Positions 4,614 through 53,744 of a DNA stretch of 64,000 bases are shown here, piece after piece. The notes beneath the pieces were generated by a model. It was not told the origin of the DNA and did not search any database. It saw only the letters and a program-made list of their open reading frames with translations. Source of the DNA: Acidimicrobiia bacterium (GTDB lineage: Bacteria > Acidobacteriota > Vicinamibacteria > Vicinamibacterales > UBA2999); NCBI GenBank assembly GCA_016871275.1, contig VFZG01000011.1:28800-92799 (forward strand). The letters run 5' to 3'. Position numbers and translations under genes: made by a program. Position 1 is the stretch's first letter; every line of letters starts with the position of its first letter.

Positions 4614-5086
4614 TGGCAATTCACGTCGTGCTCGTGCATCCCGAGATCCACTGGAACACCGGCAACGCCGGCCGCACGTGCCTGGCTGCCGGCGCCACGC
4701 TGCATCTGGTCGAGCCGCTGGGGTTCTCGCTCGACGAGAAGCAGGTCAAGCGCGCCGGGCTGGACTACTGGGAACACGTCGATCTCCGGGTCTGGCCCGG
4801 CTGGGCGGCATTCGAGCGCGCGCTGCCGTCGATGGGCGAGGCGTACTTTTTCTCCACCCGGGCATCGAGACAACTGTGGGACGCGCCGCTGGGAGATGCG
4901 GACGATGTGGTGCTGATCTTCGGCCGGGAGACCGGCGGCCTGGCGCCGGAGATTCACGAAACGTATCGCGACCGCTTCCTGACCATGCCGATCGAGTCGG
5001 CGCTGGTGCGATCGCTAAACCTCTCGACCAGCGTGGGCATTGCAGTTTATGAAGTATTGCGTCAGCGACAACGCCATAGCCCATAG
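4613..5086 (+). CDS. trmL: tRNA 2'-O-methyltransferase TrmL (SpoU/TrmH family)
   Basis: 157 aa collinear with E. coli TrmL/YibK: HPEIHWNTGNAGRTC, LDEKQVKRAGLDYWE, IFGRETGGL, SLNLSTSVGIAVYE. GTG start overlaps the upstream stop (TAGTG). Confidence 0.85.
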   Translation: MAIHVVLVHPEIHWNTGNAGRTCLAAGATLHLVEPLGFSLDEKQVKRAGLDYWEHVDLRVWPGWAAFERALPSMGEAYFFSTRASRQLWDAPLGDADDVVLIFGRETGGLAPEIHETYRDRFLTMPIESALVRSLNLSTSVGIAVYEVLRQRQRHSP

Positions 5087-5115
5087 CCCATAGCCCGCAG
5101 CCCGTAGTCCCTAAC
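5072..5115 (+). repeat. Heptamer word array CCCRYAG x6 (gccatag cccatag cccatag cccgcag cccgtag tccctaa)
   Basis: Directly visible 7-nt periodicity. The trmL stop codon TAG (5084-5086) lies inside it. The same word family recurs at 61879-61933. Confidence 0.85.
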
Positions 5116-5116
5116 C

Positions 5117-5554
5117 ATGACCATCTACTTTGCCGGCTCGATTCGCGGCGGACGGAACGATCGGGCGCTCTACCAACAGATCATCGCGCTGCTGCGGCGG
5201 CACGGCACCGTGCTGACCGAACACATCGGCAACCAGAAGCTGACGGCCTCCGGCGAGTCGATGACCGACGCCGAGATCCACGATCGCGACCTCGAGTGGC
5301 TGCGCCGGGCCGACGTGCTGGTGGCCGAAGTGACGACGCCGAGCCTGGGAGTGGGCTACGAGATCGGCCGCGCCGTTGAGTGGGGCACCCGGGTCATTGG
5401 CCTCTACCGGCCGTCGCCAGGCAGGCAGGTGTCCGGCATGATTGCAGGTTGCGACCGCGTGCGCGTATACGAATACGCGTCGGTCGCCGAACTCGAGCCG
5501 CGGCTGGCGGAGCTCCTGCTCCCTGATCCCCGATCGCCGATCCCTGATCCCTGA
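5117..5554 (+). CDS. 2'-deoxynucleoside 5'-phosphate N-hydrolase (DNPH1/Rcl)-like protein, nucleoside 2-deoxyribosyltransferase superfamily
   Basis: IYFAGSIRGGRNDRALYQQIIALLRRHGTVLTEH and ADVLVAEVTTPSLGVGYEIGRAV closely mirror the mammalian DNPH1/Rcl core motifs. Confidence 0.75.
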   Translation: MTIYFAGSIRGGRNDRALYQQIIALLRRHGTVLTEHIGNQKLTASGESMTDAEIHDRDLEWLRRADVLVAEVTTPSLGVGYEIGRAVEWGTRVIGLYRPSPGRQVSGMIAGCDRVRVYEYASVAELEPRLAELLLPDPRSPIPDP

Positions 5555-5560
5555 TCCCGG
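5519..5560 (+). repeat. Heptamer word array GATCCCT/GATCGCC x5-6
   Basis: cctgatc cccgatc gccgatc cctgatc cctgatc. It encodes the last residues (PDPRSPIPDP) and the TGA stop of the DNPH1-like gene. Confidence 0.8.
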
Positions 5561-5658
5561 CACGCTACACCAGCCGACGCTCCAGAAGCTGATCGTCGCG
5601 TCGGTGAAAGATCCTCGCAAGTCTGTGAAGCAGAAGCGGCAGACGAATAACGTGCCGC

Positions 5659-7527
5659 CTAGCTTCTCAGCCAGCCCGCGGCGCGCAGCCGATCGATCAC
5701 CTGCTGGGTGGCGGCGGGGGCTGACGACTGATCGGTATCCACGATCAGTTCGGGGGCCGGTGGCGGTTCGTACGCCGCCGACACTCCCGTGAACTGCGGA
5801 ATCTCGCCGGCCGCCGCGCGTCGATAGTGTCCCTTCGGGTCACGCGCCCGGCAGGTGTCGAGGCTGGCGCGCACGAACACTTCGACAAACCGTCCCGCCG
5901 GCAGCAGGGCGCGGGCGTTGTCGCGATCCGCCTGCGATGGCGACACGAACGCGCACAGCACGATGGCGCCGCTGTCGAACAGCAGCCGCGCCACCTCGCC
6001 CGCCCGGCGGATGTTCTCGCTGCGGTCTTCCGGCGTGAAGCCCAGGTCCCTGGTGAGGCCGTGGCGCAGGTCGTCGCCGTCAAGCGTCACCACGTGATGT
6101 CCATCGCCGAACAACCGCCGTTCGAGGTCGCGCGCGATGGTGGTCTTGCCGGAACCGGGCAACCCGGTCAGCCACACCACACCGGCCTTGTGCCCGTTCC
6201 TGGTCTCGCGATCGCCGAGGGGCACGTTGGCGGGGTTGCGCACGACGTCCCGGCGCGCCGGTTCGGCCGAGTGCGCCGGCGCCGCGCCGCGGATCATGCC
6301 GGCCGCCACGGTGTGGTTGGTGCGCGGATCGATCAACACGAAGCACCCGGTGGCCCGATTGACGCGATACGAATCGAAGAACAGCGGTTCGGCAGCGACG
6401 ATCGCAGCCACCCCGACGTCGTTCATGGCCAGCGTCTCGACGCCTTCCTCGCGGTGCAGCGTCGTCACGTCGATGCGGTAGCGCAACCGGGAGACTCGGC
6501 ACGGCACGCGCCGTGTCGTCTGCGCCAGGATGTACGGCTGCGAGGCATCGAGCGCGTCTCCATCGAGCCAGCACAGATACACATCGAGGGCCACGCCGGT
6601 CGCGGGAACATTGCCGGGGCGGACGATCATGTCGCCACGCGAGACGTCGATGTCCTCGGTCAGCGTCATTACGACGGCATCACCGGGATGGGCGGACTGT
6701 CGAGGGCCGTCGGCGGTGTCGATCGCCGCGATCCGCGCCCGCCGGCGTGACGGCAGCACCAGCACCTCGTGTCCGGTCGACACCGAACCCGATGCCACGC
6801 TACCCGTGTAGCCCCGAAACCGGCGGTCCGGACGGACCACGCTCTGCACCGGAAACCGGAAATCGATCGTGTTGTGGCGGCTGATCTGGACCGTCTCCAG
6901 CCGGTGGAGCAGCGGCCCGCCGACATGCCACGGCATGCGATCCGACGCGCTGACCACGTTGTCGCCGTGCAACGCCGACAGCGGAACATACGTGATGTCG
7001 TCGATCGTCAGGCGGCCGGCAAACTCACGAAATGCTCCCATCGCGTCGTCGAAGGCCTGTTGCGCGTAGCCGACCAGGTCCATCTTGTTGACGGCGACGA
7101 TCAGGTGTCGGATGCCGAGCAGTGACGCGATGAACGCGTGACGATGGGATTGCCGTCCGGGGCCGGTGGTGGCGTCGATCAGGATTACCGCCAGGTCGGC
7201 CGTGGAGGCCCCGGTCACCATGTTGCGGGTGTACTGCACGTGGCCGGGCGTGTCGGCGATGATGAATCTCCGCCGCGGCGTCGCAAAATACCGATATGCC
7301 ACGTCGATGGTGATCTTCTGATCGCGCTCGGCCCGCAGGCCGTCGGTGAGCAGCGCGAGGTTGATCGCGTCTTCGCCGGAGCGCCGGCTGGCGGCTTCAA
7401 CCGACACCAGCTGATCGTCGAGCAGCGACCTGGTGTCGTACAACAGCCGGCCGACCAGCGTGCTCTTGCCGTCGTCCACGCTGCCGGCGGTGGTGAAGCG
7501 AAGCAGATCGAGGTCGCCGGTCGCCAA
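5659..7527 (-). CDS. cysNC: Bifunctional sulfate adenylyltransferase subunit 1 (GTPase) / adenylylsulfate kinase
   Basis: N-terminal EF-Tu-like GTPase (AGSVDDGKSTLVGRLL, DTPGH, NKMD). C-terminal APS kinase P-loop (WLTGLPGSGKTTIA). Confidence 0.9.
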   Translation of the reverse strand: MATGDLDLLRFTTAGSVDDGKSTLVGRLLYDTRSLLDDQLVSVEAASRRSGEDAINLALLTDGLRAERDQKITIDVAYRYFATPRRRFIIADTPGHVQYTRNMVTGASTADLAVILIDATTGPGRQSHRHAFIASLLGIRHLIVAVNKMDLVGYAQQAFDDAMGAFREFAGRLTIDDITYVPLSALHGDNVVSASDRMPWHVGGPLLHRLETVQISRHNTIDFRFPVQSVVRPDRRFRGYTGSVASGSVSTGHEVLVLPSRRRARIAAIDTADGPRQSAHPGDAVVMTLTEDIDVSRGDMIVRPGNVPATGVALDVYLCWLDGDALDASQPYILAQTTRRVPCRVSRLRYRIDVTTLHREEGVETLAMNDVGVAAIVAAEPLFFDSYRVNRATGCFVLIDPRTNHTVAAGMIRGAAPAHSAEPARRDVVRNPANVPLGDRETRNGHKAGVVWLTGLPGSGKTTIARDLERRLFGDGHHVVTLDGDDLRHGLTRDLGFTPEDRSENIRRAGEVARLLFDSGAIVLCAFVSPSQADRDNARALLPAGRFVEVFVRASLDTCRARDPKGHYRRAAAGEIPQFTGVSAAYEPPPAPELIVDTDQSSAPAATQQVIDRLRAAGWLRS

Positions 7528-8436
7528 CTAGAAATACCCGGACCGCTTGCGGTCTTCCATGGCGGTGTCGGAACGGCGGTCGTCGTCTCGGCCGCCCCGC
7601 TCGCTGATGCGCGCCGCGGTGATTTCGTCGATCACTTCCGCGATCGTGGACGCGGTCGACTCAATCGCCCCGGTGCAGGTGGCATCGCCGACGGTGCGGA
7701 AGCGGACCGTGCGGGTTGACAGCCGGTCGTCCGGAAGCGGCGCGAGGTGCGGGGTGTGCGCAAACAGCAGGCCGCGGCGTTCGACGACTTGGCGCCGGTG
7801 TGCGAAGTAGAGGGTCGGCAGCGGAATGCCTTCAGCCGCGAGGTACTGCCAGATGTCCAGCTCCGTCCAGTTCGACAGCGGGAAGACACGGAAGTGCTCG
7901 CCCGGCCGGCAGCGGCCGTTGTAGATGTTCCACAGTTCCGGCCGCTGGCTGCGCGGTTCCCATTGGCCGAACGCGTTGCGATGCGAGAACACGCGTTCCT
8001 TGGCGCGCGCCTTCTCTTCGTCGCGGCGGGCGCCGCCGAGCGCCGCATCGATCCGCAGCTCGCCGATCGCGTCGAGCAACGTCACGGTTTGGAGCGCGTT
8101 GCGGCTGGCGCCGGGGCCGCGCTCATCGTGGACCCGGCCGGCGTCGATCGAGGACTGGACGGTTCGGACCAGACACGTCACGTTCATGCGCGCGGCGAAC
8201 TCGTCTCTGAACGCGATGGTCTCGTCGAAGTTGTGACCGGTGTCAATGTGCAGCAGCGGGTAAGACAGCCGCGCCGGGAAGCACGCCTTTCGCGCCAGCC
8301 AGGTCAGCACGATCGAGTCCTTGCCGCCAGAGAACAGAATCGCCGGCCGCTCGAACTGTGAGAGGGCTTCGCGAATGATATGGATCGCCTCGTTTTCGAG
8401 GTGCGGGACGTGTCGGGACTGAAAGCGGTTGCGCAT
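7528..8436 (-). CDS. cysD: Sulfate adenylyltransferase subunit 2
   Basis: PAPS-reductase-fold motif ILFSGGKDSIVL. Abuts cysNC with no gap (stop 7528, next start 7527). Confidence 0.9.
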   Translation of the reverse strand: MRNRFQSRHVPHLENEAIHIIREALSQFERPAILFSGGKDSIVLTWLARKACFPARLSYPLLHIDTGHNFDETIAFRDEFAARMNVTCLVRTVQSSIDAGRVHDERGPGASRNALQTVTLLDAIGELRIDAALGGARRDEEKARAKERVFSHRNAFGQWEPRSQRPELWNIYNGRCRPGEHFRVFPLSNWTELDIWQYLAAEGIPLPTLYFAHRRQVVERRGLLFAHTPHLAPLPDDRLSTRTVRFRTVGDATCTGAIESTASTIAEVIDEITAARISERGGRDDDRRSDTAMEDRKRSGYF

Positions 8437-8523
8437 GCGGATCTCGATGGCGCCGCCATTTCACCACTACCGAGCCGATGAACACAATGCGCCGGGTGCG
8501 TGGTCAGGCCAGGATAGGCGGGA

Positions 8524-8853
8524 ATGGCCACACGCCTGGTCGAGGGCCTGACCGAGCACGACGTGGTGACCGAGCCGTTCCCACACGTGGTCGTCGGGAA
8601 CGCGCGGCCAGACCAACGGGTGCAACAGCTGATTAGTGACTGGCCTGACGACGCCGTGTTCCGGGGCGGTCGTGCTGCGGGATCGAATCGCCGCTTCAAT
8701 TACAACGCCAGGCAGGTGATGCGCGACACGACGTTCCCGGAATCGTGGCGTAGCTTCACTGCCACCCACGTGTCCGGCGCGTTCGCGCGCGAGTGCGTGC
8801 GCTTGTTCGCGCCGTGGATTCGCAGCGAGTACCCCTTGACGATCGGCGGGTGA
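8524..8853 (+). pseudogene. N-terminal stub of a 2OG-Fe(II)-oxygenase-like/unknown-family protein
   Basis: EPFPHVVVGN...PESWRSFTATHVSGAFARE looks protein-like, but the ORF ends after 109 codons and overlaps the facing stub on the other strand. Confidence 0.3.
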
Positions 8854-9194
8854 CGGGTCTCGAACCCGAGCGCGTGGCAGGCGTCGACCGCTCGATCGAT
8901 GCCCGTCGGCTTCACCAGCAGATCGAGGTCGCTCATGCGCCGCGTTGACAGGTCGGGATACACCTCGGTCGCCAGGTGCGCGCCCTTCAAGAGGATCACC
9001 GGGATGCCGGCGTTGTCGAGCGCCGCAAGAATGGACTTGAGTGTTCCGAAGCGTCGCAAGTTCGCCGTCGCGATGGCTCTCGCGTCGTCTGCGAGCCGCC
9101 GGCGGCACGCCGCCGGCAGCGCCGATGCCGAGCCCTGCCGCGTGAGGCGATGTCGCAGCGGCCCGGACACCGCGTGACCGCGTGCCAGTTCCAC
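8700..9194 (-). pseudogene. Truncated uncharacterised-nucleotidyltransferase-family (NTP_transf_5-like) gene
   Basis: GIPVILLKGAHLATEVYPDLSTRRMSDLDLLVKPTGIDRAVDACHALGFE is the family core. The frame stays open upstream to about 9350 without a usable start. The C-terminal half of the family is missing and replaced by antisense of the facing stub. Confidence 0.4.
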
Positions 9195-9373
9195 GACCTC
9201 GGTCCACTCGGCTGCCGGCCAGGAGTCGATTCGCGGCAGAGGACTGGTCGCGGCACAGCACGCTGCCAGGCGCGTCAGCGCAGTGTGATCGAGCGCCGTG
9301 AATGCCGGGCGCTTGGTGATGAGGTAGGGGCCTCCAGCGGTTGCGGCCGGAGGCCCTGACGAAACTGCCGAAC

Positions 9374-9922
9374 CTACTTGCGCTTCGCGACGTTCAGCGC
9401 GCCAAGCCTCGCCACCATGTCCGGACCGGCTGACTGCGGCTTCACTTCCTTGTCGATGTAGAGGATCTTCCCGTCGGGAGCGATATAGAACGTCCAGCGC
9501 CGCGCCATGCCCGTCACGCCGAGCACGCCGTATGCGTTGGCAATCTCCTTCTTTACGTCGCTGAGGATTGGGTAGTCCGCCTCGTGCATCTGCGCGAACT
9601 TGGTGTTGTCCTCGATGTTGTCGACGCTAATCATGTAGTAGGCGATGTTGTACTGCCGAATCAGATCGCCGCTCTCACGGAGCGACTTGCATTCGGCCGT
9701 TCAACCACCGGTGAACGCTTTGGGAAACCACGCCAGCACGACCGCCTGCTTGCCGCGCGACTCCTGGAGCGTATGGGTCTTGCCGTCCGATCCCGGCAAC
9801 GAGAAGGCGGGGGCCGCACCACCAACCTGCAATTCCGCGGCCGGCGCCTGGGCCATCGCGCCGCTCGTCACCAGGCTCAATGCTGCGCCCATCGCAGCCT
9901 TGAGCCATAACTTCATGCGCAT
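9374..9922 (-). CDS. Exported AhpC/TSA (Bcp/PrxQ-like) peroxiredoxin with in-frame UGA (putative selenocysteine) at the peroxidatic-Cys position
   Basis: Track ORFs 9701..9985 and 9374..9634 share one frame and are separated only by TGA at 9701-9703. The joined sequence reads VVLAWFPKAFTGG-U-TAECKSL...YPILSDVKKEIANAYGV...WTFYIAPDGKILYI. ATG 9922 follows GGAGGA by 7 nt. Signal peptide MRMKLWLKAAMGAALSLVTSGAMA. Confidence 0.7.
9655..9697 (-). promoter_or_regulatory. Putative bacterial SECIS stem-loop immediately 3' of the UGA
   Basis: mRNA reads UGA-ACG-[GCCGAAU]-GCAA-[GUCGCUC]-CGUGA-[GAGCGGC]-GAUCUG-[AUUCGGC]. Two 7-bp stems (one G-U pair) and an apical loop containing GU about 22-26 nt after the UGA. 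Confidence 0.5.
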
Positions 9923-10022
9923 CAGCTGATCCTCCACCGGGGAATGGTATCCCAATTGCAGGCGTAACCAGCATGCCCAGGCCATCGTTTGTCCGCGCCG
10001 TGTGCGCCTTCGGCGGCACTGG

Positions 10023-10050
10023 TTGTCGGCGCCTTTTGTGGCCCTAGAAT
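10023..10050 (+). promoter_or_regulatory. Sigma-70-like promoter TTGTCG-N16-TAGAAT
   Basis: Hexamers and spacing read directly. The -10 ends 3 nt before ATG 10054, implying a leaderless or near-leaderless transcript. Confidence 0.35.
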
Positions 10051-10053
10051 CGA

Positions 10054-13000
10054 ATGGTGGGACGGCTGCGTAGGTGGTTGGTCATCGGAGTGGCGGCGGT
10101 CGCCGGCGTGGTGCTGGCCGTCGTGCTGGTCGCGCACCTGCCCTGGACCCGGACCCGCGCGCTGGCCTGGGCATCGGACTTCGTCGCGCGCTTCAACCTC
10201 GATCTCGAGGCAGGAAGCCTTTCGTACAATGCACTGACCCGCCGCATTTCGGTCACCGACGTTCGCCTGGCGGCTCGGGGCTTCAAGGACCGCCCGTTCC
10301 TGACTGCCAGCCGGATCGAAGTGACACTGCCGCTGAGCGTGTTGCGGCGCCGTTTCGCCATCGATCACCTCGCCATCGACGGCGGGATCGTCGACATCGT
10401 GCGCGATCGGAACAACGTCGTGAATCTGCCGCCGTCGACAGACACCCCGCCGAGTGAGCGTGCGCGGGAGATCGACATCCGATCGCTCACGATCGACGGC
10501 CTCGACGTGCAGTATGAGGACCAGTTCAGCAACTGGGGCGTGAAGGTGCCGCGGATTGAGTCCATGCTCCGCGACACGGCGCTCGGCGCCAGGGGCACCT
10601 TCGCCGCGCGGGGCGGCATCATCGTCCGGCTGCCCGAGCGGGTGATGACGCTGGCGCCGTTCGAGACGGTGATGACGTTCGACGGCTCGAACGTCTCGAT
10701 CGAGCAGGCACGGCTGTCGTCACCGGAGATCGAGGCCTTCCTGAGCGGTCCGATCAACCGCGTGCTCGATTCACCGGCGCTCGATCTGTCGCTGAAGGGC
10801 CGCGTCCATCTCGACCAGGCGATCGCGTGGGTGCCCCCGCCGCCGGTTCCCGTGGCGGGACTGGTGGCCATTGAGGGTTCGGTCGTCGGTCCGGCACGGA
10901 ACTTCGCCGCGCATCTCAGCGTGCGGAGCAACACGCTGGCGGTCGGACGCGAGCGCGATCTCACCTTCGCCGGACCGGTGCACGTGACGTTCAAGGCGTT
11001 CTCCGGCGAGGGCATAGTGATCACGCCGCGCTCCGGCGGATCGGTGCGCGCCAGGTTCAACGTGCCCTGGGCCGCAGAGCGCACCGGCAGTTCCGACAGC
11101 ATCAGGGCGTCGATCAGTACTGCCGAAGCGGAATGGCGCGGCGTCGATTCCGCGGCCGCATTGCGAATGGCCGACGTCGATCCGCAGGCCATTGGCGCGG
11201 CATTCGAAGGGCGCGGCACGTTCGAGTTCGGCGAGCCGCGCCGGTTCGTCATCGAGAACCGCTCCACCGGCAGACCCCCTTCGACGCCGCTCAGGACGGG
11301 CGGCAGCGGCGTGGTGCCGATGACCGGAACGATCAACGCGACGATCGTCGGCGACGACTATCGATTCGACCACCGCCACAGTTTCCCCGGCTTCGATTTC
11401 GAGGGACAGATGGCGGGGCGCATCGTGCGCGGCGATGCGCTGTTGAGCACCATGAACGGTCCGGCGCACGCCCGCGTCGAGGATGTGGCGCAGGCCGCCG
11501 TCAGCGTGCAGACGCTCGGCTTCCCCGTCGCCGAGGTGATGTTCGAGACGCGCGGCGCCGTGGACGCGCCGATGACGCTCGGGGGGTCGTACCGAAACCC
11601 GAAGGTCGATACCACCGTGTCCGGCGATGCGGTCGACCTGCCGTTGCTGGGCCGTGTGCGCGCGTCGGTGAATGTCGTTGCGGACACCGGCACGGCGACC
11701 ATGTCGGCCATCGACATGCGCCAGGGGTCGTCATCGATCACCGGCGAGGCGGTGGCCAACATTACGGCGCGAACCTGGAGCGGCAAGCTGCACGTCGAGG
11801 CACCGAACGCCGCCGAACTGCAGGCCGGCATTTCCGAACCGTGGCGCGTTGACGGCGCCCTGTCGGCCGACGCCAGTCTTGGTGGGACGTTCGATCACTA
11901 CACGCTCGACACGGTCCTCAGCGGCCGGGCGCTGAGGTTTGCGGGCCAACCGATCGATCGCGCGAGCGCGAAGGCGATGGTCACCCCCGAGGCGATCGAC
12001 GTGTCGTTGCTCGAGCTTCATCAGGGCGCGGGCTATCTCGCGGGCCGCGTGCGCTATGCCTGGGAGACCGGAGCATACGACGCGACGCTGAAGGGCAGCC
12101 GGCTCACGTGGCAGGGCACGCTGCTGTCCACCGCCGACACCCAGGCGCTGCTCGACGCGCAGTTCACCGGCTCCGGCACGACCGCGCAGCCGAAGGGCCA
12201 GGCGACGCTGGACTTCACGCTGACCGGCGGCGAGGCGGGGGTGTTCATCGGCGCAGGGGCGGCGACCGCCGACCTGCTCGGCGATCACGCGAGGATCGCC
12301 GCGCGGCTGCCGATGATTGGCGCGTCGATCAGCGCGGAGGTCGCCACCGCATCGCCGTACGACTACACGGTCAATGCGCAACTCGATCGATTCGAGCTGG
12401 CGAGGCTGTCTCCATTGCTCGGTGCCATCGAAACGGAGATCCGCGGATTCGCCAACGGCACCGTCACCGGTTCCGGCCGGCTCGCAGACGACCGGGACCG
12501 CGTCGCGTTGGTGAACATCACCGAGCTCGATGCCGGTGTGGCCGGCGTGCCGGTATCGTTGCTGTCGCCATTGAACGCCACGCTGCGCGGCGACGATCTG
12601 GCGCTGAAGGACCTGTCCGTTCGCGTCGGTTCAGGTCGCCTGAGCGCGAGCGGATCGTGGCACACCAGGCTCGACGGACCATCGAAGCCGCAGACGGCAC
12701 AGCATCCTGGCCGACTGGAAGGCGCTCTCCAGGCGCAGTTCGCCGGCGATTTGCAGGATGCCCTCCGGCTCGGCAAGGCGTTCGGTGTCCCGGTCTCGAT
12801 CGACGGCAGCGGGCTGATGCAGTTCGACCTCAGGAGCAACGGTACCAGGCTCGGCACATCCGGCACGCTGTCGATCACCAACGGCATGCTGGGTTGGGTC
12901 AACGCCGCGGCGGCGGTGCAGTCGTTCAACATCACAGCCACGTTGAACGGCGAGCAGCTCGAAATCGACCGCATCACGGGTGCGGTGGCCGCCGGCGGCA

Positions 13001-16000
13001 TTGTCGGCAACTTCTCTGCGACGGGCGCGGCCCGGCTGCCGGGGTTGTCGCTGGCCGCCATTGACGGCGGCGTCACGCTCGACGAGGCCAGGTTCACGTT
13101 CTCCGGCATTCCCGTCGAGCAGCAGCGCCCATCGCGCTTTGTGCTGTCGAAGAGCACGCTCGAGATGGCCGACCTGTCGTGGACGGTGGCTGAGAACCCG
13201 TTGTTGTTCGGCGGCGCGATCACGATTGGCGCCGAGGACCCAGCCCTGGACCTGTCGCTCAAGGGCTTGATCGACCTCCGCGTCCTCTCGGCGCTGACCA
13301 GCGCGGTTGGATTCGACGGCAACGCCGAAGTGAATGCCCGCGTCGAAGGCACGGTCGCAAAGCCGATGCTCGGCGGCCGCATCACGCTTGATGACGCGGA
13401 AATCGCCATCGCCGATCCGCGCGTGGTGTTATCGGACCTGACCGGCTCCATCGTGCTCGAGGGACCACGCGCCGTGTTTGACAACGTGCGCGGCACCGCC
13501 AATGGCGGCAAGCTGATAGTCGACGGGCCGGTGAAGTTCGAGGGGCTGGTGCTGAGCGGCGGCGAGCTCAACATCCAGGCCGAAGGCGTCGCGATCGAGT
13601 TGCCGAAGGGCCTCCGCAGCGAGCTCGGCGCGCTGCTGACATTCAGGCTCGACCCCAGGAACCCATCGTTGACCGGCGACATCCGCGTCAACCAGAGCGC
13701 CTACACCGAAACGATCACGCTGGCGGCGCTCGCCAGACAGGCGGCGATGCCCGTGGCCGCCGGCCTATCGGCCGAGCGGCCGTACGCCGAGCGATTGGCG
13801 CTGAACCTGTCGCTGACCACCACCGACGATCTGATCCTGGACAACAACTACGGCCGCGTGGCCGCGGGCGCCAACGTCCGCATTCTCGGCACCGTCGCCG
13901 CGCCCGGCATGGACGGCCGCGTGACACTGCGTGAGGACGGGCAGATCTTTCTCGCCGGCCGCACGTTCCGCATCGCCCGCGGCGACGTGTCCTTCACCGA
14001 CCGGCGGCACATCCATCCCGAGTTCAATATCGCCGCCGAGGCCAACCTGGGTGCCGCAGGCGGCAACGTCACGCTGACGCTGACCGGTTCGCTCGAACAC
14101 CCGACGATCGATCTCACCGCCGAAGACGGTTCGTTGACACCGGGCGAGATTGCCGCCGGCATCGTCGGTCAGACCAACACGGAAACCGCGCTCACGCTGC
14201 TGTCCGCGGACCTGCTCGGCGTGACCGGCCGGGCGATCGGTCTCGATGCGTTCCGGGTCGAGCGCGGCGCGTTTTCCGATCGGGACTTCCGCGACTACGC
14301 CGACGACCCCGCGTTGATCGGCAACAACCGGACCGACCCGACGACGCGCCTGACTATCGGCAAGCGGCTGAGCGACAAGGTTGAATTCACCGCTTCTCAG
14401 AACCTGCGCGAGAACGGCAAGGCGTCGTTCGTGGTCAGCTATTTCCCCCGTCGCAACGTCGAGCTCAGGGCCTTGTCGCGCGACAGCGGCACCGTGAGCG
14501 TGGGCGTGCGGCATCAGATCACGTTCGGCCGCGGCACCAGCACGCCGCCGTCGGAGCGGCGTGTGCGGCCGACGATCAGCGCCATCACCGTTACTGGCGT
14601 CGACGCCGCCACCGCGGCCGCGTCACAGGCGGCGATCAGGCTCGAAGCCGGCGATGCGTTCGATTTCCTCGCGCTGCAGAACGACATCGATCGCATCCGC
14701 GATTCGTACCAGCAGCGGGGCTATCTCGAAGCCCGTGTCCGCACCCGCCGCACGGAATCGGACGATGCCCGGTCGGTGGCGATTGAGTTCGTCGTCAATC
14801 GCGGGCCACGGTCGGTGCTGCAGGTCGATGGCCTGATCGCGCCGGCGGGCCTCGTGCAGGAGCTCGAGCAGGCGTGGCACAAGAACGTGTTCGATCAATT
14901 CCTGATCGAGGACCTGACCAACCGCGTTCGACGGCACCTGGTGAACAGCGGGGATCTCGGCAGCATCGTGGTGGGGCGCATCGATCGTCCCGCGCCGGAC
15001 ACCAAGCGGCTGCGCATTGAGGTGACGCCGGGCGCGCCGGTGTCGAGCCGCGAGATCAGGTTCGCCGGCAACCTCGAGCTCAATACCGATCGTCTCAACG
15101 CCGAGATCCGCGATGCCGGGCTGGAGCTCGACGCGTGGCTCGATCGCACGCTGGTCGAGCGTGCTCTGCGCCAGGCATACAACGAAGCAGGGTTCCTCGA
15201 GGCGGAGGTCGCCGGCCGGCCGCTGACCATCGACGGCACGACAGGCGTGCTGTGGATCGACATCAAGGAGGGACCGCGCACGCGGATTACCGGCCTGAGA
15301 TGGACGGGCGTGGGCGAATCGCGCCTGCCGGAGATTCAGAAGGCCACCGCGCTGACCACGCCGTCACCGTTCGTGATCGCCGACGTCACCGAGGCACGAC
15401 GGCGCATCGAAGACTACTACCGGCGCGAGGGCTTCAACGGCGCCGAGGTCGAAGTGCAGCCGGCGTTGGCGCCGGACGACACGGTGGCCGTCACCTTCAA
15501 CGTCAGCGAAGGCGTGCAACAGGTGCTGCAGTCCGTGGAGTTGAAAGGCAACGCCGTCACCAACGACGAGGTGCTCACCCAGGCGCTGAGGTTCGAGTTC
15601 GGCACGCCCGTCAACTTCGATGAGTGGACGCTGGCCCGCAAGCGTCTCTACGACACCAACGTGTTCCGCAGCGTCGACATTCAGCCGCTGCCGGACGGCG
15701 ACCCGGTCAACGGCCTGCATCCGGTGAAGGCGTCGGTGACGGTGGAGGAGATCCCGGCGTGGTCGTTCCGCTACGGCGTCCAGCTCGAAGGAGAGCGTCG
15801 TTCGGAGCCGGATGAGTTCACCAGCACGCGCAACGCCGGCGTGGTCGCCGAACTCCGGAATCCCAACCTGTTCGGGCGGGCGCTGACCGGCGGTGTGTTC
15901 GGGATGTATCAGCGCGATCGTCAGGACGCCACGGTGTTCGTGGCCAGCTCGCGGCTGTTCGGCTGGAGCGCGCGGTCGACGTTGTATGGTTTCTACGCCC

Positions 16001-16767
16001 ACGACCGGCTGCGAGACGACGCCGGCGTCATCGAAGCCGTGACCGATCGCCAGGGGATCAGCGTCGATCAGCGCTGGAGGCCGAAGGGCTTCCAGCTCGT
16101 CTACGGCTACCGCTTCGAACAGAACCACACCGTCGATCCGCGAACGCTCACCGACTTCATTCCGTTCGACTTCACCGTCTACCTGGCCAAGTTGAACGCC
16201 GCCATGCTCTACGACCGCCGCGACGATCCGATCAACCCGCGCAGGGGATTCTTCAGCTCGGCCTCGTTCGATCAGGCAGCGCCGTTCCTCGGCTCGGACG
16301 TCAACAACCGCAAGCTGCTGATGCAGCAGTTCGCGTTCGTGCCGATTGGCCGGCTGGTGCTCGCGTCACGCGCGCAGTTGGGTTTCGCGTTCGGCCGCGA
16401 TCCGCTCGCGTTGTCGGATCGCTTCCGCGCCGGCGGCGCAACCAGCGTGCGCGGATACGGGGAGGAGAGCCTTGGGCCGCGCGACCGAGACACGAAGCTG
16501 CCAAGCGGCGGCGATCGCCTCGTGATCCTCAACCAGGAGGCGCGCTTCCCGCTGTATCGATGGGCGAATGGCGTCGCATTCCTTGACGCCGGCAACATCT
16601 TCGCGAAGGGCGTGCCGTGGACGGGCCTCGAGGTGGGCTACGGCGCGGGTCTGCGGTTCGATACGCCGATCGGATTGATTCGTGGAGACGTTGGCTTCCC
16701 GCGCGGCGATGCGGCCAGAAGCCGTCGTAGCGTGCGCTGGTACTTCGGCTTTGGGCACATCTTCTAG
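10054..16767 (+). CDS. Giant fusion protein: TamB/AsmA-like inner-membrane-anchored periplasmic protein (with DUF490-type module) fused to a multi-POTRA Omp85 (BamA/TamA-like) outer-membrane beta-barrel
   Basis: Single 2,237-codon ORF. N-terminal TM segment WLVIGVAAVAGVVLAVVLVAHL. DUF490-like end LTLTGSLEHPTIDLTAEDGSLTPGEIAAGIVGQ...RLTIGKRLSDKVEFTASQNL...VSVGVRHQITFG. POTRA-like repeats follow from ISAITVTGVD. The D15 barrel ends in the beta-signal WYFGFGHIF. Confidence 0.85.
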   Translation: MVGRLRRWLVIGVAAVAGVVLAVVLVAHLPWTRTRALAWASDFVARFNLDLEAGSLSYNALTRRISVTDVRLAARGFKDRPFLTASRIEVTLPLSVLRRRFAIDHLAIDGGIVDIVRDRNNVVNLPPSTDTPPSERAREIDIRSLTIDGLDVQYEDQFSNWGVKVPRIESMLRDTALGARGTFAARGGIIVRLPERVMTLAPFETVMTFDGSNVSIEQARLSSPEIEAFLSGPINRVLDSPALDLSLKGRVHLDQAIAWVPPPPVPVAGLVAIEGSVVGPARNFAAHLSVRSNTLAVGRERDLTFAGPVHVTFKAFSGEGIVITPRSGGSVRARFNVPWAAERTGSSDSIRASISTAEAEWRGVDSAAALRMADVDPQAIGAAFEGRGTFEFGEPRRFVIENRSTGRPPSTPLRTGGSGVVPMTGTINATIVGDDYRFDHRHSFPGFDFEGQMAGRIVRGDALLSTMNGPAHARVEDVAQAAVSVQTLGFPVAEVMFETRGAVDAPMTLGGSYRNPKVDTTVSGDAVDLPLLGRVRASVNVVADTGTATMSAIDMRQGSSSITGEAVANITARTWSGKLHVEAPNAAELQAGISEPWRVDGALSADASLGGTFDHYTLDTVLSGRALRFAGQPIDRASAKAMVTPEAIDVSLLELHQGAGYLAGRVRYAWETGAYDATLKGSRLTWQGTLLSTADTQALLDAQFTGSGTTAQPKGQATLDFTLTGGEAGVFIGAGAATADLLGDHARIAARLPMIGASISAEVATASPYDYTVNAQLDRFELARLSPLLGAIETEIRGFANGTVTGSGRLADDRDRVALVNITELDAGVAGVPVSLLSPLNATLRGDDLALKDLSVRVGSGRLSASGSWHTRLDGPSKPQTAQHPGRLEGALQAQFAGDLQDALRLGKAFGVPVSIDGSGLMQFDLRSNGTRLGTSGTLSITNGMLGWVNAAAAVQSFNITATLNGEQLEIDRITGAVAAGGIVGNFSATGAARLPGLSLAAIDGGVTLDEARFTFSGIPVEQQRPSRFVLSKSTLEMADLSWTVAENPLLFGGAITIGAEDPALDLSLKGLIDLRVLSALTSAVGFDGNAEVNARVEGTVAKPMLGGRITLDDAEIAIADPRVVLSDLTGSIVLEGPRAVFDNVRGTANGGKLIVDGPVKFEGLVLSGGELNIQAEGVAIELPKGLRSELGALLTFRLDPRNPSLTGDIRVNQSAYTETITLAALARQAAMPVAAGLSAERPYAERLALNLSLTTTDDLILDNNYGRVAAGANVRILGTVAAPGMDGRVTLREDGQIFLAGRTFRIARGDVSFTDRRHIHPEFNIAAEANLGAAGGNVTLTLTGSLEHPTIDLTAEDGSLTPGEIAAGIVGQTNTETALTLLSADLLGVTGRAIGLDAFRVERGAFSDRDFRDYADDPALIGNNRTDPTTRLTIGKRLSDKVEFTASQNLRENGKASFVVSYFPRRNVELRALSRDSGTVSVGVRHQITFGRGTSTPPSERRVRPTISAITVTGVDAATAAASQAAIRLEAGDAFDFLALQNDIDRIRDSYQQRGYLEARVRTRRTESDDARSVAIEFVVNRGPRSVLQVDGLIAPAGLVQELEQAWHKNVFDQFLIEDLTNRVRRHLVNSGDLGSIVVGRIDRPAPDTKRLRIEVTPGAPVSSREIRFAGNLELNTDRLNAEIRDAGLELDAWLDRTLVERALRQAYNEAGFLEAEVAGRPLTIDGTTGVLWIDIKEGPRTRITGLRWTGVGESRLPEIQKATALTTPSPFVIADVTEARRRIEDYYRREGFNGAEVEVQPALAPDDTVAVTFNVSEGVQQVLQSVELKGNAVTNDEVLTQALRFEFGTPVNFDEWTLARKRLYDTNVFRSVDIQPLPDGDPVNGLHPVKASVTVEEIPAWSFRYGVQLEGERRSEPDEFTSTRNAGVVAELRNPNLFGRALTGGVFGMYQRDRQDATVFVASSRLFGWSARSTLYGFYAHDRLRDDAGVIEAVTDRQGISVDQRWRPKGFQLVYGYRFEQNHTVDPRTLTDFIPFDFTVYLAKLNAAMLYDRRDDPINPRRGFFSSASFDQAAPFLGSDVNNRKLLMQQFAFVPIGRLVLASRAQLGFAFGRDPLALSDRFRAGGATSVRGYGEESLGPRDRDTKLPSGGDRLVILNQEARFPLYRWANGVAFLDAGNIFAKGVPWTGLEVGYGAGLRFDTPIGLIRGDVGFPRGDAARSRRSVRWYFGFGHIF

Positions 16768-16769
16768 CT

Positions 16770-16805
16770 GCTGGTTGCTGGTTACTAGAGCAACCAGCAA
16801 CCAGC
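16770..16805. terminator. Bidirectional word hairpin GCTGGTTGCTGGTT-(8 nt loop)-AACCAGCAACCAGC
   Basis: Perfect 14-bp stem between convergent stops (TAG 16765-16767 and the minus-strand stop at 16808-16810). No U-tract. Confidence 0.6.
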
Positions 16806-16807
16806 AA

Positions 16808-17511: not shown

Positions 17512-18450
17512 ATGTCAGATCAACGCCTGAAAATCGCCGTATTCATCGATTTCGACAATATTGAGATTGGCGTCAAGACGACGCTGAATGTCCAGTTCGA
17601 CATTGGCGCGGTGCTTGAAGCCGTCAAGGAGCGTGGTGAGGTCGTCACCAAGGTGGCCTATGGCGACTGGAAGCGCTCGGGCGATCACGGGCGCGCGATG
17701 GCGCAGCACGCGGTGCGGCTGGTGCAGCGCGTCATGACGCCCGGCGGCGACAAGAACGGCGCGGACATCAACCTGGCGCTCGATGCGCTGGAAATGGCGT
17801 TCACGCACGCCCACATCAACGCCTTCGTCATCGTTGGCGGCGACAGCGACTTCATCACGCTCGTCGAAAAACTCAAGCAGTACGACCGCAAGGTGTTCGT
17901 GGTTGGCGGCCGCGCGTTCACCAGCCAGGTGATGCAGAAGAACTGCACCGAGTTCATTGCCTACGAAAACATCATTCCCGACCCTTCGACACGCTCAGGG
18001 TCGTCCCGAGCGCAGTCGAGGGACGATCGCGGCCGGCCGCCGAAGCAGGCGAGCAGGCCGGCTGGCCCGCCGGCCGGCCGGCAATCCATTGAGCAGGCCG
18101 AACCTCTTGTAATGCGAGCCCTCAAAGTGCTCGCCGACCGGGAAGTCACGCCGCAACTCGGGCTGCTGAAGAGCACGCTGTTGCAGCTCGACTCGTCGTT
18201 TTCCGAACGGGATTACGGCGCCGGCACGTTCCGCGAATTCGCCGACAAGCTGGCAAAGCAGGGGCTGGTGTCGCTCAAGCACCAGGGTCGCAGCACGCTG
18301 GTGGAATTGCCGGGAGCCAACGAACACGTGACGATGGCGCCGCACCCCGCGCCGGCAGAGGCCGATGCGTCGCTCGGCGACGCCTCGGGTGGTTCCAAGG
18401 GCGCCAGGGCTGTCAAGCGTGCCAATGCCAAGAGCTCAGAACAGCACTGA
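17512..18450 (+). CDS. NYN (LabA-like) ribonuclease-domain protein with C-terminal OST-HTH/LOTUS domain
   Basis: KIAVFIDFDNIEIG and VIVGGDSDFITLVEKLKQYDRKVFVVG (NYN). A low-complexity linker, then LGLLKSTLLQLDSSFSERDYGAGTFREFADKLAKQGLV (OST-HTH-like). Confidence 0.8.
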   Translation: MSDQRLKIAVFIDFDNIEIGVKTTLNVQFDIGAVLEAVKERGEVVTKVAYGDWKRSGDHGRAMAQHAVRLVQRVMTPGGDKNGADINLALDALEMAFTHAHINAFVIVGGDSDFITLVEKLKQYDRKVFVVGGRAFTSQVMQKNCTEFIAYENIIPDPSTRSGSSRAQSRDDRGRPPKQASRPAGPPAGRQSIEQAEPLVMRALKVLADREVTPQLGLLKSTLLQLDSSFSERDYGAGTFREFADKLAKQGLVSLKHQGRSTLVELPGANEHVTMAPHPAPAEADASLGDASGGSKGARAVKRANAKSSEQH

Positions 18451-18507
18451 ACCCCTGGTACTTTTGGAACCCCCGGCACCTTCGGACCCTTTATACTTTT
18501 TCGCGTA

Positions 18508-20409
<1,902 letters not shown>

Positions 20410-20426
20410 CGATACAATCGAACGGT

Positions 20427-21827
20427 TTGTCTGAGGTCGCGGCACAGAAGAAGTCCCCGTACGATCGGTCGCTCGTGGAAGGCCCCATCGGACCCGCCGT
20501 CTGGAAGCTGGCGTGGCCGACCATGCTCCAGAACGTCATCGCCGGCCTCCAGGGCCTGATCGACCACGTGCTCGTCGGCAACCTCCTCGGCTACGCCGCC
20601 AACGCCGCCATCGGCGTCAGTTGGCAGATCTTCCTCGTGGTCATTGTCTTCATGGCGTCGCTGTTCACCGGCCAGGCGGTTCTGGTGGCGCGCTACGTCG
20701 GCGCCGGCGACGTCGAGCGCGTCAACCGGACCGTCCAGCAGGCCATTCTCACCGCGCTCGCGATGTACCTGGTGCTGGCGCCGTTCGGCTACTTCGCTGC
20801 GCCGATGCTGCTGGATTTCGCCAACACCTCGCCCGAAGTGCGCGATCTCGCGCTGCCGTTCCTGCGCGTCAACTTCACCTTCAGCATCGGCCTGCTGATG
20901 TTCTTCATGCTGACGTCGGCGCTGCGCGCCGCCGGTGACGCGCGCACGCCGATGCGCCTCGGCATCGCGATGACGATTCTCAACGTGGTGCTGAACATCA
21001 TTCTGATTCGCGGCCTGGGCCCGATTCCGGCGCTCGGCACGATGGGCTCGGCGCTCGGCACGATGATCGCGTCGGGCACGGTCAGCGCGTTTGCGCTCTA
21101 CCGGCTGCTGAAGGGCCGGCTGGTCATCAAGCTGTCGCGGCACATGGATTGGCGCCCCGACTGGACGATCATCCGCTCGCTGTTTCGGTTCGGCCTGCCG
21201 ACCGGCGTGCAGGGCATCGCCATGAACATCGCCGGCGTCATGCTGCTGCGCTTCATCGGCTCGCTCGAGCAGAGCGCCGCAGCGCAGGGCGCCTACGCGA
21301 TTGGCTACACCGAGCTGTTCTCGCTGATTACCTGGACGTCGGTGGGATTGACGGGTGCCGCGGCGACGATTGCCGGGCAGAACCTCGGCGCCGGCCATCC
21401 CGAACGGGTCGTGCAGGGCGTGCACACCGCTTCGAAGATCGGGTTGTGGGTCGCCGCCGGCGTCGGCTTCACGTTCGTCGCCTTCCCAGGCGCGCTGCTC
21501 TGGCTGTTCGGCGCGACCGATCCCGCGGTCACGACCATCGGCCGGCAGCTGCTGCAGTATCTCGCGCTGTCTGGCTTCTTCATCACAGTGGCGCTGACCT
21601 ACACCGGCGGGTTGCAAGGCACCGGTGACACGCGCAGCCCGCTGTTCATCACGCTGGCGTCACAGGTCGCGGTGCCGATCGGCATGTGTACGGCGATCCA
21701 GGCGACTCGCCAGCTTCAGCCGGGCGACATCTGGCTGGCGATCGTGCTGGGGCATTTCACACGCTGTGTGCTGACCGTGGCCAGGTTCCGCCAGGGCAAG
21801 TGGCGCAATATGGCCGTCGCCCACTAA
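20427..21827 (+). CDS. MATE family efflux transporter
   Basis: 12-TM pattern and N-terminal VWKLAWPTMLQNVIAGLQGLIDHVLVGNL. The track ORF start (20244) lies inside the topoisomerase gene. TTG 20427 is the first start after its stop (GTG near 20472 is an alternative). Confidence 0.8.
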   Translation: MSEVAAQKKSPYDRSLVEGPIGPAVWKLAWPTMLQNVIAGLQGLIDHVLVGNLLGYAANAAIGVSWQIFLVVIVFMASLFTGQAVLVARYVGAGDVERVNRTVQQAILTALAMYLVLAPFGYFAAPMLLDFANTSPEVRDLALPFLRVNFTFSIGLLMFFMLTSALRAAGDARTPMRLGIAMTILNVVLNIILIRGLGPIPALGTMGSALGTMIASGTVSAFALYRLLKGRLVIKLSRHMDWRPDWTIIRSLFRFGLPTGVQGIAMNIAGVMLLRFIGSLEQSAAAQGAYAIGYTELFSLITWTSVGLTGAAATIAGQNLGAGHPERVVQGVHTASKIGLWVAAGVGFTFVAFPGALLWLFGATDPAVTTIGRQLLQYLALSGFFITVALTYTGGLQGTGDTRSPLFITLASQVAVPIGMCTAIQATRQLQPGDIWLAIVLGHFTRCVLTVARFRQGKWRNMAVAH

Positions 21828-23701: not shown

Positions 23702-24187
23702 ATGCTCTCAGGGCGCGGCTTCACGTTCTTCGAGCTGCTGGTCGTCATGGCGCTGATCACCGTCGTCAGCGCCATCGCCGTGCCCGTGCTGATGGAGGGC
23801 ACCACCCGCAACCAGGTGTGGACGGCGTCGGAGATGATCGGCGCGCAGATTCGCCAGGCTCGCCTCAAGGCGATCAGCCGCAACATGTCGTTCCGGGTGC
23901 GGTTCAATTGCCCGGCCGCCGGCCAGCTTCGAGTCCTCAGGGTGACCGGCGACGGCACCATCGACAACGCCGACGATCGCTGTGACGACACGCTCGAATA
24001 CGACAGTGGCATCTACCAGATGCCGGGCAACGTCTCGTATGGCGACAGCCCGCCGACGCTGACGGTCAACAGCCGCGGCGTGTTCACATCGACCGGCAGC
24101 ATTCCGGCCGTCTTGACCGTCAGCTCCGGCACATCATCGCGTTCGATGCACGTCTCAGGCACCGGGCAGATTGCCTTCTATGAATGA
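23702..24187 (+). CDS. Type IV minor pilin / pseudopilin (FimT/GspH-like)
   Basis: Prepilin leader and methylation motif MLSGRG/FTFFELLVVMALI. Confidence 0.75.
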   Translation: MLSGRGFTFFELLVVMALITVVSAIAVPVLMEGTTRNQVWTASEMIGAQIRQARLKAISRNMSFRVRFNCPAAGQLRVLRVTGDGTIDNADDRCDDTLEYDSGIYQMPGNVSYGDSPPTLTVNSRGVFTSTGSIPAVLTVSSGTSSRSMHVSGTGQIAFYE

Positions 24188-24590
24188 CGAACGCGGTTTC
24201 ACGCTGGTCGAAGTGCTGTTCGCGATGGTGATTCTCACCGTCGCGCTGGTCTCCCTGGCGGAGCTGATGGCCATCACGCTGCGCATGCAGATGATGGGCA
24301 GGAACGACACGGCGGCGGTTCGCCTGGCGCAGTCGAAGCTCGACGAGCTGGTGGCGGTGGACTTCGACGCGGCTGGGTCGAAGGCGTCCATCGGCGGCGA
24401 CCTCGATGAAGACGCGGATGGCTACCACGATGTGCCAGCCGACACGGTCGGTTTCACGCGCCGCTGGAAGATTGAAGCGATTGCCGGCGAGACCCGAGTG
24501 CGGTTGTTGACGGTGAGGCTGATTCCCGACGTGGTCGATCGGCGCACGACGTCGCCGATTGAGCTGGTCACCATCATCCGTGATCCGTAG
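24180..24590 (+). CDS. Type IV minor pilin (PilV-like)
   Basis: MNDERG/FTLVEVLFAMVIL. ATG 24180 overlaps the upstream stop. Confidence 0.7.
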   Translation: MNDERGFTLVEVLFAMVILTVALVSLAELMAITLRMQMMGRNDTAAVRLAQSKLDELVAVDFDAAGSKASIGGDLDEDADGYHDVPADTVGFTRRWKIEAIAGETRVRLLTVRLIPDVVDRRTTSPIELVTIIRDP

Positions 24591-24592
24591 CC

Positions 24593-37114: not shown

Positions 37115-38311
<1,197 letters not shown>

Positions 38312-38316
38312 GATTC

Positions 38317-52353: not shown

Positions 52354-52423
52354 GGTCTATGGGCGACGGGCGACGGCCACGACAGTCGTCGCCGCACCGT
52401 TGCCCGTAGCCCGAGAGAGCGCT

Positions 52424-53662: not shown

Positions 53663-53668
53663 CCATTC

Positions 53669-53735
53669 GCCACGGAGTCACCGAGGCACGGAGCATTGAT
53701 CAGGGACGCTCCGCGGCGTCGTGTCTCCGTGTCGC
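53669..53735. repeat. CACGGAG-word element, copy 2 (imperfect hairpin)
   Basis: gccacggagtcaccgaggcacggagc ... ctccgcgg cgtcgtgt ctccgtgt cgc. Lies between E2 and lipB. Confidence 0.7.
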
Positions 53736-53744
53736 ATCTGTGAC

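Follow-up and report, generated by a model that had tools for sequence, protein, structure and literature searches.

A conserved gene of Vicinamibacteria that fuses TamB to an Omp85 protein: a candidate single-chain translocation and assembly module

The DNA analysed here is a stretch of 64,000 nucleotides from a member of the Vicinamibacterales (assembly GCA_016871275.1, contig VFZG01000011.1, positions 28,800 to 92,799 of the forward strand). This whole stretch is called the window, and all positions refer to it unless stated otherwise. The gene under study, TamB::Omp85, encodes a TamB-type periplasmic protein and an Omp85-type outer-membrane protein in one open reading frame (ORF). The features of the gene and of its surroundings are listed in Table 1. 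According to the ORF list and the translation, the gene starts with ATG and the frame is unbroken. The G+C content at third codon positions (GC3) is 0.86, which is similar to that of the neighbouring genes, and the GC content of the window is 66%.

Table 1. Features of the TamB::Omp85 gene and its immediate surroundings (residue numbers refer to the encoded protein)
Feature	Position	Strand	Basis or remark
Fused gene TamB::Omp85	10054..16767	+	ORF list and translation; 2,237 codons plus stop
Putative signal-anchor transmembrane helix WLVIGVAAVAGVVLAVVLVAHL, residues 8-29, RLRR ahead	10075..10140	+	Read from the sequence
N-terminal AsmA-like (DUF748/YhdP-type) region, residues 4-176	10063..10581	+	Sub-threshold Pfam matches
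Beta-rich TamB body, residues 177-1147	10582..13494	+	Family profile against 9xdc_B; NCBIfam TamB, sub-threshold
TamB/DUF490 module, residues 1148-1492	13495..14529	+	PF04357; hhalign; AlphaFold secondary structure
Inter-module linker RGTSTPPSERRVRP, residues 1493-1506 (14 residues)	14530..14571	+	Sequence; low AlphaFold confidence (below 50)
Five POTRA domains, residues 1507-1899	14572..15750	+	PF07244; AlphaFold; alignment with BamA structures
16-strand Omp85 barrel, residues 1900-2237	15751..16764	+	PF01103; AlphaFold strands; motifs
Promoter-like site TTGTCG, 16-nucleotide spacer, TAGAAT; ends 3 nucleotides before the ATG	10023..10050	+	Consensus scan
15-bp hairpin with tandem TGCTGGT units (TGCTGGTTGCTGGTT...AACCAGCAACCAGCA), 2 nucleotides past the stop	16769..16806	+	Consensus scan
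264-residue GC3-rich ORF without a Pfam match	8467-9261	-	Divergently oriented to the fused gene; an intergenic gap of about 790 bp comes next

The 22-residue hydrophobic core of the N-terminal helix has no AXA-type cleavage site, as in TamB, and the helix would serve as an uncleaved signal-anchor. The AsmA-like region behind it matches the Pfam families DUF748 (E 5e-8) and YhdP (E 1e-7), both under the gathering scores, and precomputed Pfam matches to the same families exist for most homologues. The long beta-rich body is presumed, from its sequence, to form a periplasm-spanning beta-taco. The family profile matches the Escherichia coli TamB chain 9xdc_B (residues 719-1198, E 4.4e-31), and the NCBIfam TamB model gives a sub-threshold match at residues 1081-1212. 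The TamB/DUF490 family PF04357 matches residues 1148-1476 with 98.5 bits against a cut-off of 22.4. The TamB part of the AlphaFold model described below is beta-rich in its secondary structure. The DUF490 module holds amphipathic helices at residues 1361-1398 and the terminal strand TVSVGVRHQITFG (residues 1480-1492). A single-sequence phmmer search of the PDB with the DUF490 region gave no match, whereas profiles succeeded: the DUF490 profile aligns with residues 1029-1249 of E. coli TamB (matches 23sp_B and 9xdc_B).

The C-terminal half corresponds to an Omp85 protein. PF07244 (POTRA) matches in four stretches from residue 1506 (109.9 bits, cut-off 21.3), and PF01103 (Omp85) matches residues 1938-2237 (129.9 bits, cut-off 24). 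In both AlphaFold models that were prepared, one of residues 1100-2237 and the other of the Omp85 half alone, five beta-alpha-alpha-beta-beta units with a predicted local distance difference test score (pLDDT) of about 85-95 are followed by 16 barrel strands. The former model as a whole has a pLDDT of 72 and a predicted template modelling score of 0.42. A Foldseek alignment of the C-terminal half and full-length BamA spans about 815 columns (E 1.7e-39), including POTRA1-5, and the top matches are BamA. The first barrel strand (beta1) is WSFRYGVQLEGE (residues 1903-1914), the loop-6 motif VRGY is located at residues 2132-2135, and the chain ends in the beta-signal RWYFGFGHIF. The R and G of loop 6 and the last F are invariant throughout the fusion family. 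An earlier sequence-only reading of this DNA had described most of this architecture in a single ORF: a transmembrane anchor, an AsmA/TamB-like body with DUF490 at its end, a linker of some 15 residues, four to five POTRA repeats, and a D15/surface-antigen barrel with a beta-signal. The 22-residue helix, a TamB part of about 1,490 residues, the 14-residue linker and the 16-strand barrel bear this description out. The POTRA repeats are also present, and their number is corrected to five by the AlphaFold secondary structure. The DUF490, POTRA and Omp85 matches lie above the Pfam cut-offs, and the AsmA-type matches at the N-terminus lie below theirs.

The junction between the two halves was compared with the C-terminus of E. 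coli TamB. The hhalign alignment of the DUF490 module with TamB residues 961-1259 has a probability of 94% and ends 10 residues before the TamB C-terminus. Therefore, the remaining strand VSVGVRHQITFG is placed, by extension of the alignment, opposite the E. coli strand ALDLLYQFEF. In the E. coli complex, the C-terminal beta-signal strand of TamB pairs with TamA beta1 in a hybrid barrel according to cryo-EM (PMC13119328), and a like pairing of the TamB strand with BamA beta1 is predicted in Borrelia (PMC13382580). Because VSVGVRHQITFG matches this beta-signal strand, the fusion begins precisely where a complete TamB has its native C-terminus. No free C-terminus follows the strand; the chain runs on into the linker and the Omp85 module. 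The Omp85 half has neither a signal peptide nor a start of its own, and POTRA1 begins 14 residues past the TamB module.

The linker was examined at two depths. In the close homologues it is free of insertions and deletions and nearly identical (G-x-G-x-S-x-PPSERRVRP). In the wide family its sequence is variable, and the preceding 'RHxxxFG' and the first POTRA strand are conserved. Its length is 12-28 residues with a median of 15 (n = 303 sequences), and its composition is 21% R and 16% P. Since the length keeps to a narrow range and the sequence varies, the linker looks like a tether that is free in sequence and bound in length. This argues for an intramolecular geometric constraint and against a conserved cleavage site.

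A similarity search listed at least 120 full-length homologues (2,186-2,237 residues, 60-78% identity), each of which bears TamB, POTRA and Omp85 domains. Over all searches, full-length homologues have about 2,186-2,390 residues. The protein P0001 from an independent Logan assembly is 99.9% identical and differs in 2 of 2,237 residues. Residues 1100-2237 were also scanned exhaustively with HMMER against 1.84 billion representatives at 50% identity. Among the matches listed, all 150 representatives carry DUF490, linker, POTRA and barrel in one chain, or are fragments, with identity down to 28%. A further profile, built from 36 diverse members, matched at least 291 clusters of proteins (90% identity) at E <= 1e-20. 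Database proteins of about 740-1,050 residues that start at POTRA or DUF490 were considered as split versions and rejected. They are fragments, because they start in mid-domain and have no signal peptide.

In the GTDB, one genome per species was scanned with a 10-sequence alignment. A relative is encoded in 195 stretches, and 79 loci were kept, nearly all of which match residues 1-1138 of the search query with 33-72% identity. The frame is single across the TamB-POTRA junction in 76 of the 79 loci. Of the 63 loci without a contig-end cut, 52 have a single open frame of about 2,200-2,360 codons. The 11 shorter frames are broken elsewhere in the gene, and 10 of these are found in metagenome-assembled genomes (MAGs) labelled MFD (L011, L025, L029, L049, L053, L063, L065, L074, L075 and L079; none has a break at the junction). 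We take the MFD MAGs to be frameshift-prone long-read assemblies, and the breaks are consistent with insertion or deletion errors rather than with split genes.

These results also bear on the possibility that an error of sequencing or assembly joined two adjacent genes. An equally unbroken junction is present in independent NCBI, ENA, JGI and Logan assemblies, and separate genes in the order TamB then Omp85 were seen in no locus examined. Together with the intact frame in the GTDB loci, the missing start of the Omp85 half and the fragmentary nature of the short entries, this leaves such an error a negligible probability. The fusion is real and strongly conserved, and is no assembly artefact. 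The claim of one uninterrupted ORF is thereby confirmed in independent assemblies and in hundreds of homologues.

The names on the proteins and loci are Vicinamibacterales, Vicinamibacteria, Vicinamibacteraceae, Acidobacteriota or Acidobacteria, save for a few MAG titles. Several MAGs titled Acidimicrobiia, Cyanobacteriota or Bifidobacteriaceae carry a fused gene about 38-72% identical to the query (L005, L006, L011, L012, L027, L030, L035-L037, L057 and L058), and these titles are probably wrong. The GC content of the 79 loci is 62-74%. A divergent branch of the fusion, 28-31% identical to the query, is located on contigs of 40-43% GC with unrelated neighbours; its genes encode 2,271 residues (9402-16217 of locus L085, JGI metagenome 3300024433, and 4709-11524 of locus L086, JGI metagenome 3300009529). 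This branch is clearly not of the typical high-GC Vicinamibacteria.

The protein was then placed by its profile scores. The best NCBIfam match is BamA (TIGR03303) with 220.8 bits against a cut-off of 297.15. The scores are 73.3 bits against 625 for TamA (NF047950), which has three POTRAs rather than five, and 51 bits against 825 for TamB (NF047952). The equivalog score is missed in each case. By these scores the protein is related to BamA, TamA and TamB and is an equivalog of none of them. Against solved structures, the family profile gives 214-181 bits for BamA and 134-118 bits for TamA. Profiles of the single modules were scored against E. coli TamA, BamA and TamB, and against two acidobacterial loci in which an Omp85 gene is adjacent to tamB (the Terriglobales locus L082 and a second locus, L083). 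E. coli TamA scores 92 bits with the barrel profile, in one contiguous stretch, and 38 with the POTRA profile. E. coli BamA scores 53 bits (fragmented) and 150, and E. coli TamB scores 47 bits with the DUF490 profile. The barrel, POTRA and DUF490 scores are 153, 235 and 164 bits for L082, and 171, 182 and 122 bits for L083. Among the sequences tested, the profiles of the fused barrel and POTRAs give by far their highest scores to the TamB-adjacent Omp85s of L082 and L083.

The nearest unfused relatives found are stand-alone TamBs of 1,284-1,383 residues. In L082 and L083, an Omp85 of 1,013 or 978 residues with its own signal peptide is encoded just upstream of tamB. In L082, a gene for a 219-residue chaperone-like SurA_N_3 protein (9327-9986 of that locus) lies between the 1,013-residue Omp85 gene and tamB; L083 and the fused genes lack it. 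According to Heinz et al. (2015; PMC4494059), Acidobacteria have a canonical BamA plus a second TamB-linked copy; this 'second BamA' is sister to TamA, has up to seven POTRAs, and is encoded in a BamA-then-TamB operon. Because the profiles score the TamB-adjacent acidobacterial Omp85s best, which fits that account, the Omp85 half is probably a TamB-dedicated paralogue, the TamA-like 'second BamA' of Acidobacteria, and not the canonical BamA. We infer that a separate canonical BamA is encoded elsewhere in the genome. A tblastn search found no second Omp85 or TamB in the window and the 79 related loci (about 1.5 Mb), all of which represent one neighbourhood.

In the 1,013-residue Terriglobales Omp85, the stretch that aligns with the fusion's five POTRAs is residues 209-597, and about 200 residues precede it. 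Compared with this protein, the Omp85 half would thus have shed a signal peptide and some 200 residues at the N-terminus. The homologues in Vicinamibacteria are fused, and the two other Acidobacteria loci are split with the Omp85 gene first. Since the unfused order is Omp85 then tamB in the sister lineages and in E. coli, the fusion did not arise from stop-codon loss. The argument of the sequence-only reading that a B-to-A fusion is no simple loss of a stop codon therefore holds within the phylum too. As a speculation, the operon could have been duplicated in tandem, and an internal deletion could then have brought the second copy of Omp85 directly behind the 3' end of tamB, in one frame. Such a route would also remove the signal peptide and N-terminal region of that copy.

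It is rather probable that the product of the gene is a translocation and assembly module (TAM) on a single chain, and not a canonical BamA. In the proposed mechanism, the N-terminal helix would be kept in the inner membrane as a signal-anchor, and the other approximately 2,200 residues would be exported via Sec. The C-terminal 16-strand barrel would then be folded into the outer membrane by the cell's machinery for beta-barrel assembly (BAM). The TamB body of about 1,460 residues would form a periplasm-spanning beta-taco lipid conduit. Its complete DUF490 end would engage the POTRA arm and the beta1 seam of the barrel on its own chain, as the cis counterpart of the trans contact that TamB makes with TamA or BamA in other bacteria. 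The tether of 12-28 residues would keep the TamB C-terminus beside POTRA1. The likely function would be outer-membrane homeostasis, with anterograde phospholipid flow and possibly an aid to some outer-membrane proteins. The membrane topology, the absence of cleavage, the cis docking and the lipid transport are all proposals of this model. How a barrel at the C-terminus reaches BAM while the N-terminus stays anchored had been raised as a question by the sequence-only reading. This was over-stated, as the C-terminal strands of an ordinary TamB also sit in the outer membrane (PMC13119328), and the long MlaD described below is a further precedent.

The docking of the DUF490 end on the barrel was examined by mean-field direct coupling analysis (DCA) with 303 sequences (about 186 effective). 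The pairs I1489-F1905 and V1485-F1905 rank 3 and 14 of the 51,376 DUF490-by-barrel pairs, and about 0.04 are expected by chance in the block of the last TamB strand against beta1. These pairs join membrane-facing positions of that strand to barrel beta1. A short tether to the own barrel seems feasible by analogy with the Borrelia model, in which POTRA1 is located near POTRA5 (PMC13382580).

Several points weigh against the single-chain TAM. The covariation involves one beta1 column and no ladder of strand contacts, is noisy with so few effective sequences, and could be phylogenetic; it is a weak signal and serves as a hint. In the AlphaFold model, the pLDDT is low at the terminal strands of DUF490 (about 50-60), in the linker (below 50) and at barrel beta1-beta3 (43-59). 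When the Omp85 half was modelled alone, the seam was equally weak (48-69). Because this control is as weak, the low confidence of the seam is intrinsic to the barrel, and the comparison is uninformative on cis docking; a cis arrangement read off the AlphaFold model was rejected. That the chain would stay uncleaved is a reading of the sequence. The barrel comparators were E. coli TamA and BamA and the two TamB-adjacent acidobacterial Omp85s, a set without an acidobacterial canonical BamA. The protein has five POTRAs and a higher score on the BamA model than on the TamA model, so that 'TamA-like' applies to the barrel only. The canonical BamA elsewhere in these genomes is likewise part of the interpretation and not of the data.

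Other readings of the intact gene were also considered. The protein could be a polyprotein, in which a periplasmic protease cuts the linker after export and yields an ordinary TamB and an ordinary Omp85, which would assemble as a two-subunit TAM at a fixed 1:1 stoichiometry. The fusion would then serve for co-export, and the Omp85 could do without a signal peptide. The predicted disorder and the high arginine content of the linker would suit a protease, and PPSERRVRP is almost invariant in the close family. The Omp85 half also has no signal peptide, and the stand-alone acidobacterial Omp85s have one. However, no linker motif is conserved in the wide family, where a dedicated cleavage site would be expected to persist, and in the close family, at 60-78% identity, the linker is no more invariant than the domains on either side of it. 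The narrow range of lengths suggests a structural tether rather than a disposable spacer, and no protease gene is found among the conserved neighbours. Cleavage is thus quite unlikely. If the chain is uncleaved, the DUF490 end might still dock in trans, entering the seam of a canonical BamA or of a second copy in a domain-swapped oligomer. Borrelia TamB can partner BamA (PMC5582053, PMC13382580), and in cis, 14 residues may not reach from the periplasmic end of the beta-signal strand to the tip of an arm of five POTRAs unless the arm curls back. The lack of a confident cis arrangement in AlphaFold points the same way. On the other hand, a uniformly short linker is easier to explain by an intramolecular contact, which the proximity of POTRA1 and POTRA5 in five-POTRA models makes feasible. 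The covarying positions belong to the last TamB strand and to beta1 on one chain, a signal in which cis contact and a homo-oligomeric swap are indistinguishable. We consider docking in trans unlikely.

The third reading concerns the identity of the Omp85 half, which could be the sole Omp85 of the Vicinamibacteria, that is, their essential BamA insertase covalently tied to an inner-membrane-anchored TamB bridge. If so, one trans-envelope polypeptide would perform both outer-membrane protein insertion and phospholipid delivery. The five POTRAs are as in BamA, BamA leads both the NCBIfam and the Foldseek matches, and the window and related loci yielded no second Omp85. That absence weighs little, however, as the loci searched sample one neighbourhood. 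The BamA score falls under the equivalog cut-off, and E. coli BamA is far more distant from the barrel than the TamB-adjacent Omp85s of Acidobacteria and TamA are. The two copies reported for Acidobacteria by Heinz et al. (2015; PMC4494059) also speak for a separate BamA, and a sole Omp85 is very unlikely. The single-chain TAM with cis docking is therefore the reading that we retain.

The fused gene stands alone, and no neighbour suggests a functional partner. Upstream, divergent cysD-like and cysNC genes of sulfate assimilation are present (5659-8436, minus strand); these genes were found in none of the 79 related loci. Downstream are an NYN-domain gene, a parE-like gene, a MATE transporter gene and an aldehyde dehydrogenase gene. 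The conserved neighbours in the 79 loci are NYN (55 loci), parE-like (51), MATE (38) and parC-like (25) genes, located in the window at 17512-21827 and 37-2163. The promoter-like site ahead of the gene is weak evidence, as one was found against 0.7 expected by chance. No obvious Shine-Dalgarno sequence was read ahead of the ATG at 10023-10056, and the transcript may be leaderless. The hairpin after the stop looks like a putative terminator with a weak T tail. No Rfam match was obtained in the whole window.

Other genes of the window were noted in passing. Three consecutive small genes at 23702-25264 (plus strand), one of them with a GspH domain, have N-terminal methylation motifs and make up a pseudopilin cluster of the type II secretion or type IV pilus type. 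Two sets of 2-oxoacid dehydrogenase genes are present, at 37115-41160 (minus strand) and 50905-54410 (plus strand). One set includes 2-oxoglutarate dehydrogenase E1 and E2, and the other includes a dihydrolipoamide dehydrogenase, a second E2 and a lipoyl ligase/transferase.

The fusion was compared with known systems. In the TAM of E. coli (TamA and TamB; PDB 9XDC and 4C00), TamB is anchored in the inner membrane, as proposed for the fusion, and likewise ends in a DUF490 with a terminal beta-signal-like strand. Its Omp85 partner likewise combines POTRAs with a barrel of 16 strands, and the barrel profile of the fusion scores TamA above BamA. In contrast, the E. coli TAM consists of two polypeptides encoded in an operon in the order tamA then tamB, whereas the fusion is one chain with TamB before Omp85. 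TamA has three POTRAs and the fusion five, the TamB part of the fusion is about 230 residues longer, and the fusion is far below both NCBIfam equivalog cut-offs. The acidobacterial Omp85-TamB operon of L082 and L083 belongs to the same phylum and holds the closest relatives of both halves among the sequences tested. It differs in its separate genes with Omp85 first, in the signal peptide of its Omp85, in the SurA_N_3 gene of L082, and in the seven POTRAs of some of its Omp85s (Heinz et al., 2015; PMC4494059) against five in the fusion.

The hybrid BAM-TAM of Borrelia burgdorferi (PMC5582053, PMC11361582, PMC13382580) shares a five-POTRA Omp85 partner and the gene order tamB then bamA, and the C-terminal strands of its TamB are predicted to complete the barrel at beta1. 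It differs from the fusion in that BamA and TamB are two proteins and TamB works with the sole canonical BamA. The long MlaD of Veillonella parvula (PMC10665443) has an inner-membrane domain, a periplasm-spanning part and an outer-membrane barrel in one chain and acts in lipid trafficking; it is a precedent for a covalent lipid bridge from the inner to the outer membrane. Its folds are unrelated to those of the fusion. It has an MCE domain, a small barrel formed by oligomerization and no Omp85 or POTRA part, and its proposed transport is retrograde. TamL-TamB of Bacteroidota (PMC12045153) also shows a lineage-specific N-terminal remodelling of a TamB-partnered Omp85. In that case TamL gains a lipid anchor and stays a separate protein, with no fused TamB.

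Literature searches, with subscription-only papers outside their scope, found no description of a natural TamB-Omp85 fusion. In those portions of the text that a term search covered, the TAM evolution paper, the Omp85 superfamily survey, the TAM review and the TamL, Borrelia and cryo-EM papers contain no mention of it. The public entries are named generically, as 'TamB domain-containing protein' by PGAP or with a dual BamA/TamB label at JGI. The architecture is thus apparently undescribed, as the sequence-only reading had supposed, while the sequences are already public in large numbers under such names.

Both the role of the TAM, whether as an insertase, as a phospholipid conduit or in the two capacities at once, and the way in which TamB cooperates with its Omp85 partner are debated. 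For the hybrid barrel, a stable working state and a transient one are both conceivable. The suggestion that a TamB-Omp85 fusion would be a natural 'hard-wired' TAM is strengthened by its conservation in hundreds of Vicinamibacteria genomes. The fusion sets a hard geometric limit, with the TamB C-terminus within about 50 Å of POTRA1, and provides a naturally stoichiometric single-chain target for cryo-EM, cross-linking and proteomic tests. The reversed order of the modules relative to the sister Acidobacteria points to gene rearrangement rather than to read-through. A large clade that keeps both partners on one chain shows that permanent 1:1 tethering is compatible with function, and the fusion marks a clear lineage character of the Vicinamibacteria, an abundant soil group.

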